Below, piece by piece: positions 3,381-11,758 of a stretch of DNA of 12,806 nt. The position numbers and the translations under genes were made by a program. Under the pieces are notes generated by a model. It saw nothing but the letters and a program-made list of their open reading frames with translations. It was not told the origin of the DNA and did no database searches. The first letter of the stretch is position 1. Each line of letters begins with the position of its first letter. The DNA is from Promethearchaeia archaeon (lineage in GTDB: Archaea > Asgardarchaeota > Lokiarchaeia > Sigyniarchaeales > SOKP01): NCBI GenBank assembly GCA_046483985.1, contig JAWOCD010000018.1, forward strand, positions 1-12,806, given 5' to 3'.

Positions 3381-4175
3381 TCATCCTCTTACTATCGCTA
3401 TGAATTTTGAGAATTTCTCAAGAATGTCATTTCTTAAGTCTTGAATGAATTCATCAGGACCGTGTTCTTTTTCTACAAGCAGACATCCTTTACTTGTCTT
3501 CCGATTGAAATATTTATAAAGGTTTTCAGGAGTATCTACAAAGTATCCCTTATCTCTATATTGTTCTACCTCTTTAAAGATTGCAGCTTCATCAGGCACA
3601 TGTCTAAGAATGAAATACATATAATGTAAATCTTTAGCTCGCTTTAATTCATCTTCTCTATCTAAAAAGGTTGCCCCTTTATGATAAAGAAAAGCGGATG
3701 GGCGTGGGCAATAAATTTCATATTCAGCTTTTCGTCTGTCATCAGAAATATCTACTTTGCATCTATGGTTAAGAAGAAAATCAAATCTATCTACTTTATT
3801 TATATTTATCTGTCTTCCGATTAAATTGTCTATCGCATCCCTGCTGATTTCAGGATATGTGATGAATTCCACAGGAATTTTCCCTCCCTTATACAAAACA
3901 ACAGGATACATTTTTCCTATTTCTAAGTGACGCTCTGAATAATCCAAAGCAGAGAGTTTGTCAAAAACTGTCTTTTTCTTTTTCACACCTTGGATATCCC
4001 CAAATCCAAAATCGATGTCAACTGTTGTTATTATCTTTTTAGGTCTTTTCTTCCATAAATAATTTGAATAAATATAGGGAACCCAACCACCTACAAGTGT
4101 AAGGTTCTCAAGATATTCCTTAAGATCATTTAGAACACTGAAAAAAGCGGATTCAAGTTTATGTTGTTCAAACAA
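3381..4175 (-). CDS. Nucleotidyltransferase-fold toxin of a type IV TA / abortive infection pair (AbiEii / GSU2403-like)
   Basis: 'LVGGW', 'TTVDIDF', 'FLYHK' and 'KRAKDLHY' motifs of Pol-beta-like AbiEii NTases. TTG start overlaps the upstream antitoxin stop by 8 bp. Confidence 0.75.
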   Translation of the reverse strand: MFEQHKLESAFFSVLNDLKEYLENLTLVGGWVPYIYSNYLWKKRPKKIITTVDIDFGFGDIQGVKKKKTVFDKLSALDYSERHLEIGKMYPVVLYKGGKIPVEFITYPEISRDAIDNLIGRQININKVDRFDFLLNHRCKVDISDDRRKAEYEIYCPRPSAFLYHKGATFLDREDELKRAKDLHYMYFILRHVPDEAAIFKEVEQYRDKGYFVDTPENLYKYFNRKTSKGCLLVEKEHGPDEFIQDLRNDILEKFSKFIAIVRG

Positions 4176-4875
4176 GAGACTTACCTTGATTCCCTAAAAC
4201 ATTCTCAAGAAATTGCGCATGCTCTCTACCTCTCGGCTGAAAATTATAAAGGTCAAGATAGAGCTGTAAATTAGAGACAACATGGAAGCCTTTTATTACC
4301 TGAGAATTAAACAATATGCTTTTTTTATAATAGGGATTAATGATATAAATATTGCCTCCACTTACCAGTTCTTTGAGGTCTAATTCTTGTCGCAGTCTCA
4401 GAATCTCCTTCTCCCAATTTTTTGAAAAAAAATAAAAGTAAATATTATCCGTTTTAACATAGGATGTGATTAAATTCGCTCCAGAATGAAGAGTGAAAGC
4501 ATATTTGTCTTTATTTTGGATAGATTTAATTTTCTTAAATATATCTTTTTCCGGAGAATAATATAAATCGACTTCGTTAAATTCAAATCTATAATACTTT
4601 AGCCAGGCATTTATGAGCTCTTCCTTATTGGTGAGAACAGTAAAACTTTTAGGTCCTTTTTTTACTCTCTCTACAAAGCCCAACCTGGATAATTCTTCCA
4701 AAACCTCTTGGGCAAATCCTAAACTCACTTTGTTTTCACCAATAAAATCTCTTACTACCCATTTTTTATTTGGATCTTGAAGCATCTTTCTTAATATTAT
4801 GGACGCTTTATCTGCAAAAATATTCTTTCTTCTTTTCATGCTCTTTATAATGTTCACCATTCTTCTTATGTTCAC
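4168..4875 (-). CDS. AbiEi-like type IV TA antitoxin / winged-helix transcriptional regulator (true start probably ATG at 4839)
   Basis: N-terminal wHTH-like segment (VSLGFAQEVLEELSRLGFVER) and C-terminal 'VVSNLQLYLDL....PRGREHAQFL' typical of AbiEi_2-type antitoxins. Translationally coupled to the NTase. Confidence 0.78.
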   Translation of the reverse strand: MNIRRMVNIIKSMKRRKNIFADKASIILRKMLQDPNKKWVVRDFIGENKVSLGFAQEVLEELSRLGFVERVKKGPKSFTVLTNKEELINAWLKYYRFEFNEVDLYYSPEKDIFKKIKSIQNKDKYAFTLHSGANLITSYVKTDNIYFYFFSKNWEKEILRLRQELDLKELVSGGNIYIINPYYKKSILFNSQVIKGFHVVSNLQLYLDLYNFQPRGREHAQFLENVLGNQGKSLV

Positions 4876-5059: not shown

Positions 5060-5620
5060 TTTGTTGGTGATAATTTTCCCTCCATTTCATCAAATTCCCA
5101 TCATCTAAGCGACTTCATCACTCATCATACATGTAAAATAAAGGTCAAGTCAACAAGCAACCCACCAAAAAGAGAGAACATCAAAAAATCAGTCTAATAG
5201 TGCCACACAAAGAACAGAGATCTCCCTTACCCCTGAACTAGGGGATTAGAATATCACAAATACTCTGATAGTTCCTCAGCGGCTATAGAGAGCTGAGCTT
5301 GAGGAGGCGGGGGCCGAGCAGCCTTAAAAGTCAGATTAAGGTGTTTGATGATCTTGTCTATGACTTTGTGGTCTTCAATAAAGGAGACAATTCGCATGGT
5401 TCCTCCGCATTGGGGACAGATGAGAGGATCGATACTGTGCACATTGAATCCTGTATGACGCCAGTGAAGAATCTTTTGGAAGGCTCTCAAATCGGTTCTC
5501 ATATTCCGGAAGAAATGGCTCAAAATAATGGAAGAGCACACTGTAAAAAACGGTGCGCTCCGGATGATGTGGGCGGTAGACCCTGCTCATGGCAGGGATA
5601 GTGATTCAAGAAATGTGCCG
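5018..5620 (-). mobile_element. Internally deleted, non-autonomous IS91-family element
   Basis: Three non-contiguous transposase pieces are joined: N-terminus (MSRVYRPHHPERTVFY..LFHYFE.FL.EYE.RFE, from 5590), a middle piece (WRHTGFNVH) and the C-terminal zinc ribbon (DPLICPQCGGTMRIVSFIED..VI.KI..HL, to 5254). A hairpin cccct-gaact-agggg near 5230-5244 and the ori end follow. The ter boundary was not identified. Confidence 0.8.
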
Positions 5621-5817: not shown

Positions 5818-5855
5818 GGGCGGTTAGCTCAGTTGGGAGAGCGTGGCGTTCGCAA
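5818..5855 (+). tRNA. tRNA-Ala(CGC), 5' half only; interrupted at the 3' edge of the anticodon loop
   Basis: GGGCGGT-TA-GCTC-AGTTGGGA-GAGC-G-TGGCG-TTCGCAA: acceptor 5' strand with G3, a perfect D arm, anticodon 5' stem and a 7-nt loop with CGC. The next bases (GATGA) do not pair with TGGCG, and I saw no T-arm or 3' half in the window. Confidence 0.88.
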
Positions 5856-6015
5856 GATGATAGCAGGGAAGATGCTTAAGTTATTGAAATCAAGGGAAAT
5901 ACCAGTGATATCAGCGACTTATCTTTGATTTTCCTTTCAATTATAATACCATAATTTCAGCAATTTTCAATCGATTTTGGCACTTATTTGGCACATGGGG
6001 AGAAGTCTGGTTTGA
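5849..6015 (+). repeat. att-like 167-bp repeat, copy 1 (core TTCGCAA, IHF-like site, tandem arm-type repeats)
   Basis: Gap-free alignment to 11521-11687 with 149/167 identity by hand. Contains TAAGTTATTGAAA (one mismatch to the IHF consensus YAANNNNTTGATW) and TTTGGCAC x2 at an 11-bp period (5976-5983, 5987-5994). Confidence 0.9.
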
Positions 6016-6375
6016 TCATAAGAAAGGGAGTTTATGGAACATAAAGATATCTATGGAAATAGTAAACAATGGACAGTCTAAACCATTAATGTGTCTTCTG
6101 GAATTTTTTCAAATGATACACTTTTTTATCTTATTGTCTCTATGTCATCTGTTTTCAGTTTTACAAAGTGTAACATATGTTACAAAACATATAATCTTAT
6201 CACCGCCATATCTTTTATTTTCTGTTCTATGGATTTTGTTAGATGTAACATTAATTTTTATGTGGATGATTGTTTATAAATCATATCTAATTGATTTTAA
6301 AGGAAATTAATAGATTGGTATGAATTTTGCTCAATTTAATAATATTGGGAAATATTTTAATGAAAGGAAGAAGAG

Positions 6376-6549
6376 ATGATGTTTGTAAAATTATCAGAAG
6401 GAAATATTAGGAAACAAGGTTTTAAAAATAATGAAGTGAATGATGTAACGCCAGAAAGTTTATGCACAGAGCTATGTGCAATGATATGCGAAGCTCCTGG
6501 TGGAGATCGAAGCAATGACACTGTTTTGGGATGGAACATTGCTGGATAA
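6376..6549 (+). CDS. Cys-rich RiPP precursor peptide, 57 aa, absent from the ORF track
   Basis: MMFVKLSEGNIRKQGFKNNEVNDVTPESLCTELCAMICEAPGGDRSNDTVLGWNIAG*. RBS GAAAGGA at 6362-6368, a hydrophilic leader and a CxxxCxxxC core, upstream of and co-oriented with an rSAM/SPASM gene. Confidence 0.85.
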   Translation: MMFVKLSEGNIRKQGFKNNEVNDVTPESLCTELCAMICEAPGGDRSNDTVLGWNIAG

Positions 6550-6892
6550 TAAACTAATCACCATCTAAGTAATTGTATAAAATGTAAATTTGTTCAATTA
6601 ATTTCATTTCGTTATTTAAAAAATTTTATTTGATCTTACCAAAGGAATGAGGGATTTATTTTATTAGATTCCAGATATTTGAAGGTAAAGTGATGTTGGG
6701 TTCATTGGAAACGAGGTAATGAAAAAGTTGCCAAAAAGAAAAATTAGATATTACATAAAGACACAAGAAAGGAAATATCTTCTTTAATTAAATTTGTTTA
6801 AACATCTGAGATAATTCATATTTCATTTCGCTCCTGTTATGAGAAATAATTAATATTACATTACAATAATTTGATAAATTAAGTTCAAATTT

Positions 6893-8188
6893 ATGTCAAT
6901 AGAAAAGAGAAGTATTTATATTAAGAAGGGAACATTTATTTATTTATGTGATTATAATTTTATTATCAATAAAGAAATTGAGAAAGAATTTATAAAATAT
7001 AAGAGGTTTAGAAAAATTGAGGTTAGAGATATTATTATTTCTAGATCTAAACTATCAAGAGAAGTAAAAAAAATAAGACAGCTTCAATTTGAGGTAACAC
7101 AAAATTGTAATTTAAATTGTAAGTATTGTGTTTATGGAGAACATTATGATCGTCGTAAAAAAGCAAAAAAAGAACTGGAATATAAAACTGCGAAAGCAGC
7201 AATTGATTATGTTTTTAACATTATTTCCAAAAGATATAAAAAAGAATTTGATATAAGTTTCTACGGAGGAGAACCTTTATTAAATTTTGAAACAATAGAA
7301 AAGATTGTGGAATATGCAAAAAATAAATTTATAAATTGGAAAATTAATTTTCATATAACAACTAATGGAACTCTATTAGATAAAAAGAAAATAAATTTTT
7401 TTATAAAAAATAATTTTCATGTTTTAATAAGTTTAGATGGTCCTAAAGAAATACATGATGAAAAGAGAATTTATGCACATGGGAAAGGATCTTTCAGAAA
7501 AATTATGTTAAATTTGAATGAACTTAGAGATACAAACGAAAATTTTTATAACAAAAATATATCTTTTTCTTCCGTTTGGTCTTTTGATTTATCTTTAAAA
7601 AAAATATATGACTTCTATACTAAAGAAGAATTAGTTAAATACAATGAAATACTTTTATCACCACTAGATCCTGGAACAAAAAGTTATTTTAAGGAGTATA
7701 CCTTTGATAAAGAGAAAAAAATGAAAGAATTTTCTAATATTATAAATTTAATTGAGAACAAAAAAAAGAAAAAGATTAAAATAAATACTTTCGAATATAA
7801 TATTTTAGGAATTCATAACTCTATAGAGAATATGTTATTTAAGCGATTTTTTACTACTTTATATGGAACTTGTTTATTTAACCTTAAAGTTTTTTTGGAT
7901 GTTGATGGATTCTTTCATATATGTCATATGGTTGAAGAATCATGGCCTATTGGAGATGCATGGAATGGATTGAACTTCAATAAAATGAAAGAATTGTCTG
8001 ATAAGTTTATTTATTTAAACAAAGTATATTGCAACAATTGTAAATATAAATTTCTTTGTCGTAGATGTTTTGCACAATCTATAAAAAAAGGAAAAATCAA
8101 TATAAAGAATTTTTCTTGTGAAAATAGGAAGAAGTCAATACAAGAACAATTAGAAAGATATGTTAATTATAAAATAAAATACAAATGA
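6893..8188 (+). CDS. Radical SAM/SPASM peptide maturase
   Basis: CNLNCKYC (CxxxCxxC), 'FYGGEPLL', 'TTNGTLL', 'ISLDGP...HD..R', and SPASM cysteines (GTC...DG.FHIC...CNNC.....CRRC...C). Confidence 0.93.
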   Translation: MSIEKRSIYIKKGTFIYLCDYNFIINKEIEKEFIKYKRFRKIEVRDIIISRSKLSREVKKIRQLQFEVTQNCNLNCKYCVYGEHYDRRKKAKKELEYKTAKAAIDYVFNIISKRYKKEFDISFYGGEPLLNFETIEKIVEYAKNKFINWKINFHITTNGTLLDKKKINFFIKNNFHVLISLDGPKEIHDEKRIYAHGKGSFRKIMLNLNELRDTNENFYNKNISFSSVWSFDLSLKKIYDFYTKEELVKYNEILLSPLDPGTKSYFKEYTFDKEKKMKEFSNIINLIENKKKKKIKINTFEYNILGIHNSIENMLFKRFFTTLYGTCLFNLKVFLDVDGFFHICHMVEESWPIGDAWNGLNFNKMKELSDKFIYLNKVYCNNCKYKFLCRRCFAQSIKKGKINIKNFSCENRKKSIQEQLERYVNYKIKYK

Positions 8189-8201
8189 TAGAATTGGAAT
8201 A

Positions 8202-9011
8202 ATGACTGAATACTTCCATCAATTTGTTAGGATAGAACAGGGTGTAGTTAACTCAATAATAATAGATTTTTTGCATAATAAACTATTTCATATAGATAAT
8301 GTAACTATTAAAAAATTTTACAATAATAAGTATAATAGTATTCAAGACTTTGTAAATAGAGCAAGAGAAGAAAAATTGCTTATTAAGATAAAAGAAAGAA
8401 CTTGGATTCCGTATTTCAATTTTAAAAAAGAAAAACAAATGGAAAACAATATTAATTATCTTACGTTAGAAGTCGATGAAGGAGTTAATTTAGAGATTAT
8501 AAAAAGGAAAATTAACTATATCTCAAATGCTTATATTTCTAGAATAATAACATATGGTAAAAACAAAAAAATAAATGCTAAAAAAATTTTGATTAAAGGA
8601 AATATTATAAAACAAATATATAAGAAAAAAAATTTCAAAGATTGTGTTAATAAAAGTGAAGTCAAGCCTTGGTTGACAAAAGAATTAAATGTATATAAAT
8701 ATCAATTTAATATGAGTTATAATAGTTGTTGGGGCAAGAAAATTGCGATCTCAAATGAAGGAAATGTAAGACCATGCATTTATAGTCATTTATCTTTAGG
8801 GAATTTCTATAACCAACCAACTGAAGAGGTAATTGAAAGATTAACTAAATATTGGAATATAACAAAGGACAATATTGAAATATGTAAGGATTGTGAATTT
8901 AGATATTTATGTTTTAATTGTCCCGAATATAATTATATAAAAACGAATGATTTATATAAAAAAAATCCTTCTTGTAGTTATAATCCGTATTCTGGTAAAT
9001 GGATAAGTTAA
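8202..9011 (+). CDS. SPASM-domain protein lacking the SAM-cluster motif (pseudo-rSAM, grasp-with-SPASM-like partner)
   Basis: No CxxxCxxC. C-terminus 'NSCWGKKIAIS..G.VRPC...YWNITKD.IEICKDCEFRYLCFNC...CSYNPYSGKW'. N-terminal 'G...SIIIDF' segment could be an RRE. Starts 13 bp after the rSAM gene. Confidence 0.85.
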   Translation: MTEYFHQFVRIEQGVVNSIIIDFLHNKLFHIDNVTIKKFYNNKYNSIQDFVNRAREEKLLIKIKERTWIPYFNFKKEKQMENNINYLTLEVDEGVNLEIIKRKINYISNAYISRIITYGKNKKINAKKILIKGNIIKQIYKKKNFKDCVNKSEVKPWLTKELNVYKYQFNMSYNSCWGKKIAISNEGNVRPCIYSHLSLGNFYNQPTEEVIERLTKYWNITKDNIEICKDCEFRYLCFNCPEYNYIKTNDLYKKNPSCSYNPYSGKWIS

Positions 9012-9130
9012 TTGGATATATTTTTTTAACGAACTGCCCCCCAAAATTAGTACCACCTGGAGTGCTAAGATTTTCGTGTTATAATAGGCATTATCAGAGC
9101 GAAAGAGAAGCCCTTTTGAGGAGGCTGATG

Positions 9131-9439
9131 ATGTCCGGTAAATATGGGAAACGATACACTCCAAAATTTAAGTTTCAAGTCGTCATGGAAGTCATTAAGA
9201 GTTCAAAAACGGTCGCCCAGATTGCTCGGGGCTATGGTGTGCATCCGATTACGATCCATAAGTGGAAAAAGGAGTTTGAAGAGAAAGGCCCCGAGATATT
9301 CGGAGAGAAAACAACCATTCATGAATATGAGAGGAAGATCCGGGAACTTGAACAACTGATCGGACATAAGGAGGTGGAGATCGCTCTTTTAAAAAATTTT
9401 TTAACCGGAGACTCAGAAGAGAGGAAAAAATCGAGTTAG
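9131..9439 (+). CDS. IS3-family OrfA (HTH)
   Basis: 'KRYTPKFKFQVV...TVAQIARGYGVHPITIHKWKK' followed by a leucine-zipper-like segment. RBS GAGGAGG at 9118-9124 puts the start at 9128 or 9131, not 8999. Confidence 0.88.
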   Translation: MSGKYGKRYTPKFKFQVVMEVIKSSKTVAQIARGYGVHPITIHKWKKEFEEKGPEIFGEKTTIHEYERKIRELEQLIGHKEVEIALLKNFLTGDSEERKKSS

Positions 9440-10308
9440 TTAAAAAGTTTAAGGATGAACACGGACTCAACAGAATGTTAAAGATTTTGAGCTTATCGAA
9501 AAGCAGCTGGTATTATGCTAAGAATAAAAAACCATATACAGACAAATACAGTAATTTGAGAAAGCCATTGATGGAGATTGCCAAAAAAAATCCGGAATAC
9601 GGATACAGGCGGACAACATCTGAACTTGCTGAAAGAGGTTTTCTTATCAATCATAAGGTCGTAGAAAAGCTTCATCGGCACTGGAATTTATCAGTTATGA
9701 AAAGAGTTAAAATTCCCAAACCGAATCCCATTGTTAAGCTTTTAAAGAAAGCTGGATCGAAAGTAAACTTAGTTTCCAGCCTCAGAGAGATTGATGACCT
9801 TGAAGTTTTCTATACAGATTTCACTGAGATTGTTTATTGTAAAGGGCAGGCTAAAGCTCAGCTGATGCCCATAATCGACCACAGCAGCAAACTTGCTGCC
9901 GGGCATGCTTTGGGTAAAAGTGCCAACACAGATCTGGCCATCAAAGCCTGGAAGAAAATGAAAGCAACACTGAAGAGGTTTGGCCGGAGAATTGAAGACA
10001 TTATTATTCATCATGATCAGGATGGTGTTTATACAGGATACAGATGGCTCAATGAGATTATGTTGAATTCTAAAGCGCGGCTATCTTATTCAGAAGATGG
10101 AGCTAAAGAAAATGCTTATATGGAATCATTCAATGGCAGGTTTAAAGTTGAGAACCGTTTGATTTTCTGGGAGCTGGATGATTTTGAAGAATTAGAAAAG
10201 GTTGTCAATAACCGAATCCGTTATTATAATTTTGTTCGGAAACATTCGGCGCTTGGTAATAAGTCGCCAATGAAATATTTAAAAGAAAAGGGCAAACTGG
10301 AACTCTGA
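9391..10308 (+). CDS. IS3-family OrfB DDE transposase, probably expressed as OrfAB by -1 frameshift
   Basis: 'YGYRR', 'TDFT', 'HHDQ', 'NAYMESFNG.FK.E', 'YYN..R.HSALG..SP'. The -1 frame is open from 9370, with slippery run TTTTAAAAAATTTTTT at 9387-9402. Confidence 0.9.
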   Translation, partial: KKFFNRRLRREEKIELVKKFKDEHGLNRMLKILSLSKSSWYYAKNKKPYTDKYSNLRKPLMEIAKKNPEYGYRRTTSELAERGFLINHKVVEKLHRHWNLSVMKRVKIPKPNPIVKLLKKAGSKVNLVSSLREIDDLEVFYTDFTEIVYCKGQAKAQLMPIIDHSSKLAAGHALGKSANTDLAIKAWKKMKATLKRFGRRIEDIIIHHDQDGVYTGYRWLNEIMLNSKARLSYSEDGAKENAYMESFNGRFKVENRLIFWELDDFEELEKVVNNRIRYYNFVRKHSALGNKSPMKYLKEKGKLEL

Positions 10309-10377
10309 AATGTTAGCGCAAATTAGCCCCATAAGTGGTACTAAAAATGGGGGGCATATCCTAATAATTTAAATTCA

Positions 10378-11535
10378 ATGTGTTTATTTGAAAAAAAATA
10401 TTTAGCTTTTATTCTTCTTATTGTCAACTTAATTTCAATAATGATGAATAATTGCCAAATGGAGGAACGCACTTTTACTATCGAATCTGTTAATGGTTAC
10501 AAGATCATTCATAACAAGAAACCTCTTTGGAAAGATAGACAAAAGATCACCTTGAAGTTAATCAGAAAAATAGGAGGAATCGAGACAGAAAAAGAAGAAT
10601 ATATTTTTCATAGAAATTTCGACATGGTTAAAGACAAAAATAGTAATAAATATATTTTATCTTGGGGGAAGTTTTTTATTCGGAAGTTTAATAAAGACTG
10701 GAATATTGTATTGAGATTTGGCAAAGAGGGACAGGGTCCAGGAGAGATTGAATGGCCCATGTGTTTATCAAGTGATTCTCAGGATAACATTTATATTTTT
10801 GACTCGAGAAGTGGAACAAGAGCCACAGTCTATTCACCGGATGGAGAGCATCTCAAAGACATCAAACTTCCCGGACGCTGCCAGAAGATGATCATTCTCA
10901 ATTCTGGTGATTATGTCTTGGATACTCTGGATCTCAACAAAGAAGTCAATCCTACTATTATGGCAGTCGTATCTAATGAGGGGAAAATAATAAAAAGATT
11001 CTGTGCGGCTAAGGATTATGGGATACCTTCTCTTACTTATAATGCCAACCAGGTTTATTTCACCAATGATAATAAAGATAACATCTATATTGCTTTTGAG
11101 AATCAAAACAGAATAGAAAAGTATTCCTCTTCAGGAGATTTGATATACAGGGTGGAACAACCTTTGGATTACTCAATAATCAATAAAATGACTTTACAGG
11201 GTGAACAGAGGTGGCCTGAACTTACGTATGTCAATATAGATATTAAAATAGATTCCAAGGAAAGGCTTTGGGTGACAACTTTTAAAGACTTACCTGAGAA
11301 AAGAGGATCAAGATCTCAAACACTTGAGAATCAAGATAATCTTGAATTTCGGATTTATAGTAAAGATGGAATATGGCTAGACCGAATACCAGTTCCTGTC
11401 CCTCATTTTAAAAAAAGAATCTATGGAAACCGTATTTATTTGATCGATCCTTATTTTGAGACATGTATTTATGAATATGAGATAATTGAAATATATATAG
11501 GAGAGAAAAAAGACAATACTTTCGCAAGACAATAA
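10378..11535 (+). CDS. Exported 6-bladed beta-propeller (NHL-like) protein
   Basis: Hydrophobic N-terminus ending in a Cys (possible lipoprotein), 'FGKEGQGPGE', and repeated 'D..DNIYI.D', 'YS.DG' and 'IDSK.RLWV' blade motifs. Its stop codon lies inside att repeat copy 2. Confidence 0.8.
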   Translation: MCLFEKKYLAFILLIVNLISIMMNNCQMEERTFTIESVNGYKIIHNKKPLWKDRQKITLKLIRKIGGIETEKEEYIFHRNFDMVKDKNSNKYILSWGKFFIRKFNKDWNIVLRFGKEGQGPGEIEWPMCLSSDSQDNIYIFDSRSGTRATVYSPDGEHLKDIKLPGRCQKMIILNSGDYVLDTLDLNKEVNPTIMAVVSNEGKIIKRFCAAKDYGIPSLTYNANQVYFTNDNKDNIYIAFENQNRIEKYSSSGDLIYRVEQPLDYSIINKMTLQGEQRWPELTYVNIDIKIDSKERLWVTTFKDLPEKRGSRSQTLENQDNLEFRIYSKDGIWLDRIPVPVPHFKKRIYGNRIYLIDPYFETCIYEYEIIEIYIGEKKDNTFARQ

Positions 11536-11687
11536 CGAAGAGGATGCTTAAGTTATTGAAATCAAGGGAAATGCCAGTGATATCAGCGACTTACCTTTGA
11601 TTTTCCTTTCAATCCTAATACCATAATTTCAGCAATTTTCAGTCGATTTTGTCACTTATTCGTCACATGGAGAGGAGTTTGGTTTGA
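11521..11687 (+). repeat. att-like 167-bp repeat, copy 2
   Basis: Begins with TTCGCAAGA; 89% identical to 5849-6015. Arm-type repeats here read TTTGTCAC and TTCGTCAC (11648-11655, 11659-11666). Confidence 0.9.
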
Positions 11688-11758
11688 GAAAAAGTAAGGT
11701 AAGGAGACTGAATTCAAGAGGCATGAAAATATGATTGGTTTGAATGAACAACCAATCT

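Follow-up and report, generated by a model that had tools for sequence, protein, structure and literature searches.

A putative three-cysteine peptide cassette with a CteB-like radical SAM/SPASM enzyme and a SPASM-only partner on a 12.8-kb contig

Contig JAWOCD010000018.1 (12,806 nucleotides; assembly GCA_046483985.1), which was analyzed over its entire 12.8 kb and is called the window here, contains a 57-amino-acid open reading frame (ORF) followed by genes for a radical S-adenosylmethionine (rSAM)/SPASM enzyme and a SPASM-only protein. The question raised by this locus is whether the ORF encodes the substrate of the two proteins and, if so, what they would make of it. A preliminary description had read the ORF as the precursor of a peptide that is made on the ribosome and modified post-translationally (a RiPP) and the downstream pair as its maturase genes, and this reading was supported when the same type of peptide was found 5′ of homologous rSAM genes. 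The locus is probably a real RiPP cassette of an uncurated family, in which the leader peptide is held by a SPASM-only partner containing a RiPP recognition element (RRE) and three cysteine thioethers are made by a CteB-like rSAM enzyme; we infer the binding mode, the chemistry and the ring topology. The genome is 4.06 Mb and 97% complete.

The ORF (6376–6549, + strand) translates exactly as had been stated, with a ribosome-binding site, cysteines C30, C34 and C38 (codons 6463–6465, 6475–6477 and 6487–6489) and a PGG turn, here EAPGGD, followed by a 19-residue tail. The rSAM/SPASM gene and the SPASM-only gene named in the preliminary description were confirmed by Pfam and NCBIfam scans at 6893–8188 and 8202–9011, respectively. 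All three genes are co-oriented and in the order seen in related loci.

About 50 relatives of the rSAM protein were collected at 30%–48% identity, and 18 loci around such relatives were taken from genome, metagenome and assembly collections (loci are designated by L numbers below). A search for similar short ORFs beside the homologous rSAM genes, as suggested earlier, gave a family-profile peptide directly 5′ of the rSAM gene in 15 of the 18 loci, a divergent cysteine-containing peptide at the same place in L016 and L093, and none in L012. Alignment of the peptides defined a leader of ~25 residues, M[LIF]KKLT...E(E/R)RxA, and a core consisting of C-x3-C-x3-C and a tail of 14–28 residues (mean 19.3). 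When the peptides were anchored on the cysteine triad, the third cysteine was followed by a turn, G-G-x-[G/P]-D, and the tail contained 10.4% Tyr and 8.9% Asp with no other fixed position. A profile built from 18 peptides was searched against 1.84 billion representative proteins and matched 84 cluster representatives at E ≤ 1e-3. All except two were 47–70 amino acids long (82/84), with an exact CxxxCxxxC in 68 of these 82 and mostly Cx4Cx3C or a similar variant in the remainder. As a reverse check, three peptide matches were picked arbitrarily; two were located just 5′ of an rSAM gene whose product was 46%–49% identical to that of the window, and the third was a pair in tandem at the end of a contig.

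The association of the peptides with this enzyme family is specific. Among 160 loci collected by rSAM similarity, a precursor match or the N-terminal region of the partner was detected in only 13, all of the close family, and in none of the 147 loci that were CcpM-like or more distant. When ten family peptides were scanned against Pfam and NCBIfam, no significant family was returned, and no description of the peptide family, its distribution in Aminicenantes or the RRE-SPASM partner was found in literature searches on Aminicenantes SPASM proteins and sactipeptides, grasp-with-spasm, pseudo-rSAM proteins and CcpM. As judged from these alignments and gene neighborhoods, the 57-amino-acid ORF is supported as a RiPP precursor; the family to which it belongs recurs, has so far not been described and occurs mostly in uncultured Aminicenantes. 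Extra precursor genes occur in some relatives: L015 has three (including 9957–10127 and 10576–10755) and L255 has a tandem pair (296–755).

The window peptide diverges from the family in its leader, which begins MMFVKLSE where the family has MLKKLT, so that part of the first motif is kept; the ERTA/ERxA motif is absent. A word-based search with the peptide matched only itself, and its relatives emerged only through genomic context and the profile. Its core, ICEAPGGD, is close to the ICDKSPGGD of the peptide in L007, the locus with the nearest rSAM relative. With a leave-one-out profile, the window peptide ranked first of 60,444 ORFs of at least 30 amino acids in its own genome (E = 0.02). These results bear on whether the ORF is a chance frame in AT-rich DNA, the true substrate of the enzymes being encoded elsewhere. 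Short ORFs are common at the 24%–28% GC of this region, an antisense ORF of 60 amino acids overlaps the frame, and the word-based search gave no homologue. The idea is nonetheless highly improbable, as the ribosome-binding site is strong, the position and orientation are those of the family-profile peptides in 15 of the 18 related loci, ICxxxPGGD is common to the window peptide and that of its closest rSAM relative, and no other ORF of the genome scored higher against a profile built without it.

The spacer between the precursor and rSAM genes is 344 nt in the window, compared with 68–112 nt in L007 and L009 and 610 nt in L253. Within this spacer, a 22-amino-acid ORF at 6719–6787, MKKLPKRKIRYYIKTQERKYLL (MKKLPKRK...QERKYLL), is nearer to the canonical leader (MLKKLT...ERxA) than is the leader of the real precursor. 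It may be a relic of a second precursor; its match to the family profile was not significant.

The 431-residue rSAM protein matched PF04055 at 8.4e-18. Its CxxxCxxC motif (C72/C76/C79) is encoded at 7106–7129 and its seven SPASM cysteines by codons between 7871 and 8119, and all ten cysteines are invariant in 31 relatives. The N-terminal domain is short and RRE-like (three strands, two helices, ~58 residues). In NCBIfam scans, the best-scoring curated model was CcpM (TIGR04068; 243 bits, E 7e-72, cut-off 500), the second was GG_samocin_CFB (TIGR04148; 187 bits, cut-off 300), and the best matches further included PapB (NF047865; 159 bits, cut-off 340), the sactisynthase RumMC (NF035951; 156 bits, cut-off 720), the SCIFF maturase (TIGR03974; 125 bits, cut-off 425) and QhpD, such that nearly all were maturases that form thioethers or act on cysteine-containing peptides. 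No curated NCBIfam model matched at its cut-off, which agrees with the earlier reading of the system as a candidate new RiPP, and models of the AlbA, ThnB and TrnC/D types were absent from the best 25 matches. The protein was modeled with AlphaFold 2 (AF2) at a predicted local distance difference test (pLDDT) score of 90. The best structural match of the model was CteB (5wgg_A; Z 28.2, root-mean-square deviation [rmsd] 4.5 over 387 residues, N-terminal domain included), followed by ChlB and anSME (Z 25.6), with TigE at Z 20.9, and a profile search of the PDB also placed CteB as the nearest solved structure (E 1.8e-39). The CteB-like fold was not taken as showing the same regiochemistry. A second, distant rSAM/SPASM gene is present in the genome (G000:C101:15032-16189, L003); it is 24% identical and contains one in-frame TGA.

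Pfam and NCBIfam scans of the 269-residue partner recognized only a SPASM domain (PF13186; TIGR04085), and the protein has no CxxxCxxC. Its AF2 model (pLDDT 92) was compared with solved structures using Foldseek and VIA. Residues 1–65 (8202–8396) form a strand-rich winged-helix domain that matches the RRE of TbiB1, a leader-binding protein for lasso peptides (Z 6.5, rmsd 2.5–3.6 over 61–65 residues) and also the RREs of TruD/LynD and MccB (Z ~5). Residues 80–170 are a reduced alpha/beta segment, alignable with a portion of the radical SAM barrel of SuiB, SkfB, PqqE and BtrN and without CxxxCxxC, and the C-terminal SPASM domain, Cys176–Cys258 (8727–8975), has seven cysteines that are invariant in the alignment. 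The whole chain aligns with TigE (Z 8.2) and CteB (Z 7.9). The combination of an RRE, a barrel remnant lacking the cluster motif and a SPASM domain therefore suggests that the partner is a degenerate RRE-rSAM-SPASM maturase, that is, a ‘pseudo-rSAM’. Its nearest curated relative is grasp-with-spasm (TIGR04193; 88 bits, cut-off 175). The protein is no stray ferredoxin: its gene comes after the rSAM gene in every one of the 16 loci long enough to judge, and in about nine relatives the partner is fused to the rSAM C terminus in single proteins of 690–713 amino acids. Natural fusions occur in L014 and L172.

The partner was modeled in complex with the precursor. This model scored 0.73, and the best of three controls scored 0.02; 58 of 80 solved complexes and 2 of 110 mismatched pairs attain that mark, figures that apply only roughly because the alignments used here were our own. 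Model runs agreed in at least 42% of contacts, with a partner pLDDT of at least 36. The confident contacts joined peptide residues 1–11, the conserved beginning of the leader, to the strand at residues 25–32 and the helix at residues 47–57 of the partner RRE, which is the canonical way in which an RRE holds a leader.

In the mechanism that we propose, the 57-amino-acid peptide would be the substrate, and its N-terminal leader would be held by the RRE of the SPASM-only protein. The partner would be a degenerate paralogue of an RRE-rSAM-SPASM maturase that has lost the radical SAM site and kept two auxiliary Fe-S cluster sites, and together with the catalytic CteB-like rSAM/SPASM enzyme it would form a two-subunit maturase, corresponding to the single polypeptide of some relatives. 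The catalytic subunit would cleave SAM and abstract hydrogens in the C-terminal tail, after which Cys30, Cys34 and Cys38 would be joined to tail residues as thioethers to give a cross-braced hairpin. The final steps of the pathway would fall, in relatives, to an HxxEH (M16-like) protease and an ATP-binding cassette (ABC) exporter. A two-subunit maturase is the likeliest arrangement because of the complex model and the fusions of the rSAM protein with its partner. More tentatively, and with a probability that we set somewhat below even, the maturase could be a split one in which the partner is an obligatory and catalytically dead subunit, its RRE binding the leader and its pair of auxiliary Fe-S clusters acting in substrate handling or electron transfer, and the product could be a new class of three-thioether hairpin from uncultured Aminicenantes. 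In thuricin CD, TrnC and TrnD are active only when tightly complexed via their RREs, and the radical SAM activity of TrnC alone is essential (PMC12093266). By analogy, the window pair looks like this arrangement taken further, with one radical SAM site wholly lost.

As to the cross-links, cysteine thioethers made by the rSAM enzyme are the best guess, by analogy with characterized systems, because the cysteines are the only invariant residues of the core, because characterized enzymes near the top of the list of matches (PapB, RumMC, QhpD, the SCIFF maturase and CteB) join cysteine sulfur to carbon, and because the arrangement of triad, turn and tail is consistent with a nested hairpin. An Asp lies five residues past the third cysteine in 21 of 68 family peptides and is, at the level of the alignment, the sole hint of a preferred acceptor; since no other acceptor position is conserved, the ring pattern cannot be read from the sequences. 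The links may be alpha (sacti) or beta/gamma (ranthi), and the register put forward earlier (C38-S46, C34-V50 and C30-W53) would be a hypothetical pattern. The same real cluster might instead carry out another chemistry: C-C or C-O cross-links to a Tyr/Trp-rich tail, cysteine oxidation of the anSME kind, or modification of other residues, with the cysteine triad used to ligate a metal or an Fe-S cluster or for recognition. The abundance of Tyr and Asp in the tail and the aromatics at alternating positions would suit such a product; anSME and TigE, neither of which makes thioethers, are also close structural matches, and CcpM, the nearest curated family, has no known chemistry. We consider this alternative unlikely: the aromatic positions are not conserved, whereas the cysteines are, with a spacing that is fixed in 68 of 82 peptides, and the best-scoring characterized relatives all link cysteine sulfur to carbon.

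Several observations weigh against a thioether cassette of this kind. The window peptide is a weak family member, with a leave-one-out E of 0.02 and neither the KK nor the ERTA motif in its leader. In the partner, CFNCPE (8913–8924, residues 238–241) stands where relatives have CFDCRE, beside cluster-binding cysteines, such that N239 and P241 occupy positions that are Asp and Arg in >90% of relatives. Because solved RRE-leader complexes exist, the complex model may pass through likeness alone, and the peptide's own fold is uncertain in it (pLDDT 36–39). Except for the frequent Asp, no acceptor position is conserved, and the nearest curated families, the CcpM and GG-Bacteroidales enzymes, are themselves uncharacterized. 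Finally, the window cassette has no protease or exporter gene, and no copy of an M16-like gene was found in the genome.

Genes for these last functions were present in some relatives. A gene for a ~300-residue protein with an HxxEH (HLFEH) motif comes after the partner gene in nine loci, for example L007:6070-6960. This protein matched Peptidase_M16 only marginally (22.0 bits, cut-off 22.3) and is only half as long as an M16 peptidase; it may act as the family's leader protease. ABC transporter genes were found in one locus and YcaO in one. In the latter, L171 (5871–7637), a YcaO enzyme follows the M16-like gene, which suggests hybrid chemistry. L007, whose enzymes are 48% identical to those of the window, has genes for an M16-like protease, a propeller and an ABC system. 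A propeller gene, of the DUF5128 type, closes several homologous clusters, and the cluster is also followed by a propeller in L014, L171 and L172. The window propeller is 23% identical to protein P0130 of L007, which matches PF17170. The positions of the window features are listed in the table below.

Table. Features of the window, with positions counted from its first nucleotide
Feature	Position	Strand	Basis
Ribosome-binding site, AGGAAGAAGAG (AGGAAG)	6362..6372	+	Read from the sequence; directly 5′ of the precursor ATG
Precursor leader, residues 1–29	6376..6462	+	Peptide alignment; contacts of residues 1–11 in the complex model
Precursor core, residues 30–57 and stop	6463..6549	+	Read from the sequence; family core pattern
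Radical SAM/SPASM peptide maturase, 431 aa	6893..8188	+	Pfam/NCBIfam scans, invariant residues, AF2 model
RRE-SPASM ‘pseudo-rSAM’ partner, 269 aa	8202..9011	+	Pfam/NCBIfam, alignment, AF2 model, structure matches
IS3-family insertion sequence, orfA and orfB	9024..10367	+	Pfam/NCBIfam transposase matches, inverted repeats, junction sequences
Secreted beta-propeller, NHL/DUF5128-like, 385 aa, hydrophobic N terminus	10378..11535	+	Pfam/NCBIfam; counterpart in L007
Left copy of 179-nt direct repeat	5849..6027	no strand	88% identity to 11521-11699; bounds the low-GC cassette
Right copy of 179-nt direct repeat	11521..11699	no strand	88% identity to 5849-6027

In the window, the spacer between the partner and propeller genes is occupied by an IS3-family insertion sequence, and no coding sequence is cut. 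Its 45-nt inverted repeats (9024–9068 and 10323–10367) are imperfect, and its ends leave at most ~20 nt (~1–20 nt) between the partner stop codon and the propeller ATG. As the assembly contains a single copy of the element, there was no second copy against which to fix its ends. Contig depth over the element was 2–4 times that of the flanks in one sediment run, and the element is probably multi-copy in that sediment community. Deletion of an M16-like protease gene by the insertion was considered and dropped, as the element is located in a spacer of ~1–20 nt and L014 and L172 run from maturase to propeller without a protease. Contigs from two RNA libraries match 8580–9041 and 10693–10983, in the partner and propeller genes, exactly, which is only a weak hint of transcription; the RNA-library contigs covered neither the precursor nor most of the rSAM gene, a result that is informative in neither direction. 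Contigs with the identical cassette were also recovered from several other, independent sediment metagenomes and bridge the junction with the insertion sequence.

GC content is 22%–28% across 6000–9000, inside the cassette, and 40%–45% in the flanks, and this difference, together with the bracketing 179-nt direct repeats, indicates that the cluster is on an acquired cassette. The repeats, which enclose the block of precursor, maturase, insertion sequence and propeller, resemble the attachment sites of an integrated cassette. The flanking gene mscS matches, at 100% identity, a contig of a Candidatus Aminicenantes metagenome-assembled genome. No tRNA was found in the window with ARAGORN, and promoter and terminator scans of 5900–9100 performed no better than on shuffled sequence. 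Elsewhere in the window, 3381–4875 (minus strand) encodes an AbiEi-like antitoxin (PF09952) and a nucleotidyltransferase (PF12281), likely an AbiE-type toxin-antitoxin pair, and a transposase-like fragment is present at 5254–5541.

With this setting in mind, the window copy could be the decaying remains of a cluster of this type, no longer productive and borne by a mobile low-GC cassette. The divergent leader with its marginal profile score, N239 and P241 in the partner, the insertion sequence splitting the partner from the propeller gene, the lack of an M16-like gene in the genome and the gap of 344 nt between the precursor and rSAM genes, compared with the shorter gaps of L007 and L009, would all be expected of a relic. 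On balance we find decay improbable. The three core ORFs are intact and keep all invariant residues of both enzyme families, the insertion leaves every coding sequence uncut, an M16-like gene is likewise missing from L014 and L172, which proceed straight to the propeller, and L253 has an even longer gap; in addition, the identical cassette recurs in independent sediment metagenomes, and the RNA-library contigs match the partner and propeller genes exactly, weak as that hint is.

The family delineated by this analysis has a simple conserved core and comprises at least 80 sequence clusters. Its source lineage is of phylum level and without cultured producers, and no RiPPs from this lineage were described in the literature searched. 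Pseudo-rSAM and SPASM-only proteins have been listed in databases for >10 years without a function, and the constant linkage, the fusions and the predicted leader-binding domain make a role testable. If correct, the role proposed here would be the first function for ‘pseudo-rSAM’ proteins and would extend TrnC/TrnD-type synergy to its endpoint. Thuricin CD and similar hairpins with nested thioethers are antibiotics of narrow spectrum. By likeness to these hairpins, the product of the window cassette may be bioactive.

Among known systems, thuricin CD (TrnA/TrnB, TrnC/TrnD) had been named as the model in the preliminary description, and the layout of the peptide bears this out in part. In both systems the N-terminal half of the core contains three cysteines, at i, i+4 and i+8, and the tails are of similar length, and the triad, turn and tail of 14–28 residues occur family-wide and fit a hairpin; the maturase, however, is closer to CteB, PapB, QhpD and CcpM than it is to TrnC/TrnD or AlbA, and by NCBIfam ranking is nearer to CteB/CcpM than to the classic sactisynthases. 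The parallel drawn with two maturase genes holds loosely. Two maturase-type proteins are present in each system, and in thuricin CD these are complexed through RREs with one essential radical SAM activity (PMC12093266), but the second protein of the window lacks the radical SAM cluster motif altogether, keeps only ~90 residues of the barrel and looks like a leader-binding subunit. There is also one precursor in the window and two in thuricin CD, and the hosts are Aminicenantes rather than Bacillus.

The ranthipeptide maturases CteB/SCIFF and PapB share with the window enzyme the organization of an RRE, an rSAM domain and a seven-cysteine SPASM domain and act on cysteine-containing peptides, and CteB is the closest solved structure. 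Unlike them, the window enzyme scores far under the family cut-offs (125/425 and 159/340), its N-terminal domain is shorter, its precursor shows no SCIFF pattern and no CxxxD repeats, and an RRE-SPASM partner is present. CcpM of Clostridia provides the best curated model for the rSAM protein and has cysteine-rich peptides as substrates, but the score of 243 bits is below its cut-off of 500, and the CcpM-like loci collected have neither the partner nor MLKKLT peptides.

The GG-Bacteroidales system (TIGR04148/TIGR04149/TIGR04150, IPR026418) also combines an rSAM maturase, a dead ‘pseudo-rSAM’ and a small peptide, with DUF5128-type propeller genes nearby; this pairing has been noted bioinformatically, and the pseudo-rSAMs are without an assigned function (PMC10352776). 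The window differs in its score (187 bits, below 300), in a peptide with no GG leader or TIGR04149 match, and in the absence of TIGR04150 among the partner matches; the peptide of one relative, L094, reached E 0.088 with TIGR04149. Grasp-with-spasm proteins (TIGR04193) share with the partner an RRE-like N terminus and the SPASM motif, including the W..TKD...CKDCEFRY.C.DC block, but the partner scores 88 bits (below 175), and TIGR04193 proteins exceed it in length by ~90 residues and, in Bacteroidota, are partnered by an ATP-grasp ligase. No ATP-grasp ligase was found among the window ORFs, where the neighbor of the partner is a radical SAM enzyme. Judged by its genes and their relatives, the cluster would work like a sactipeptide or ranthipeptide cluster, but it belongs to no curated family tested.

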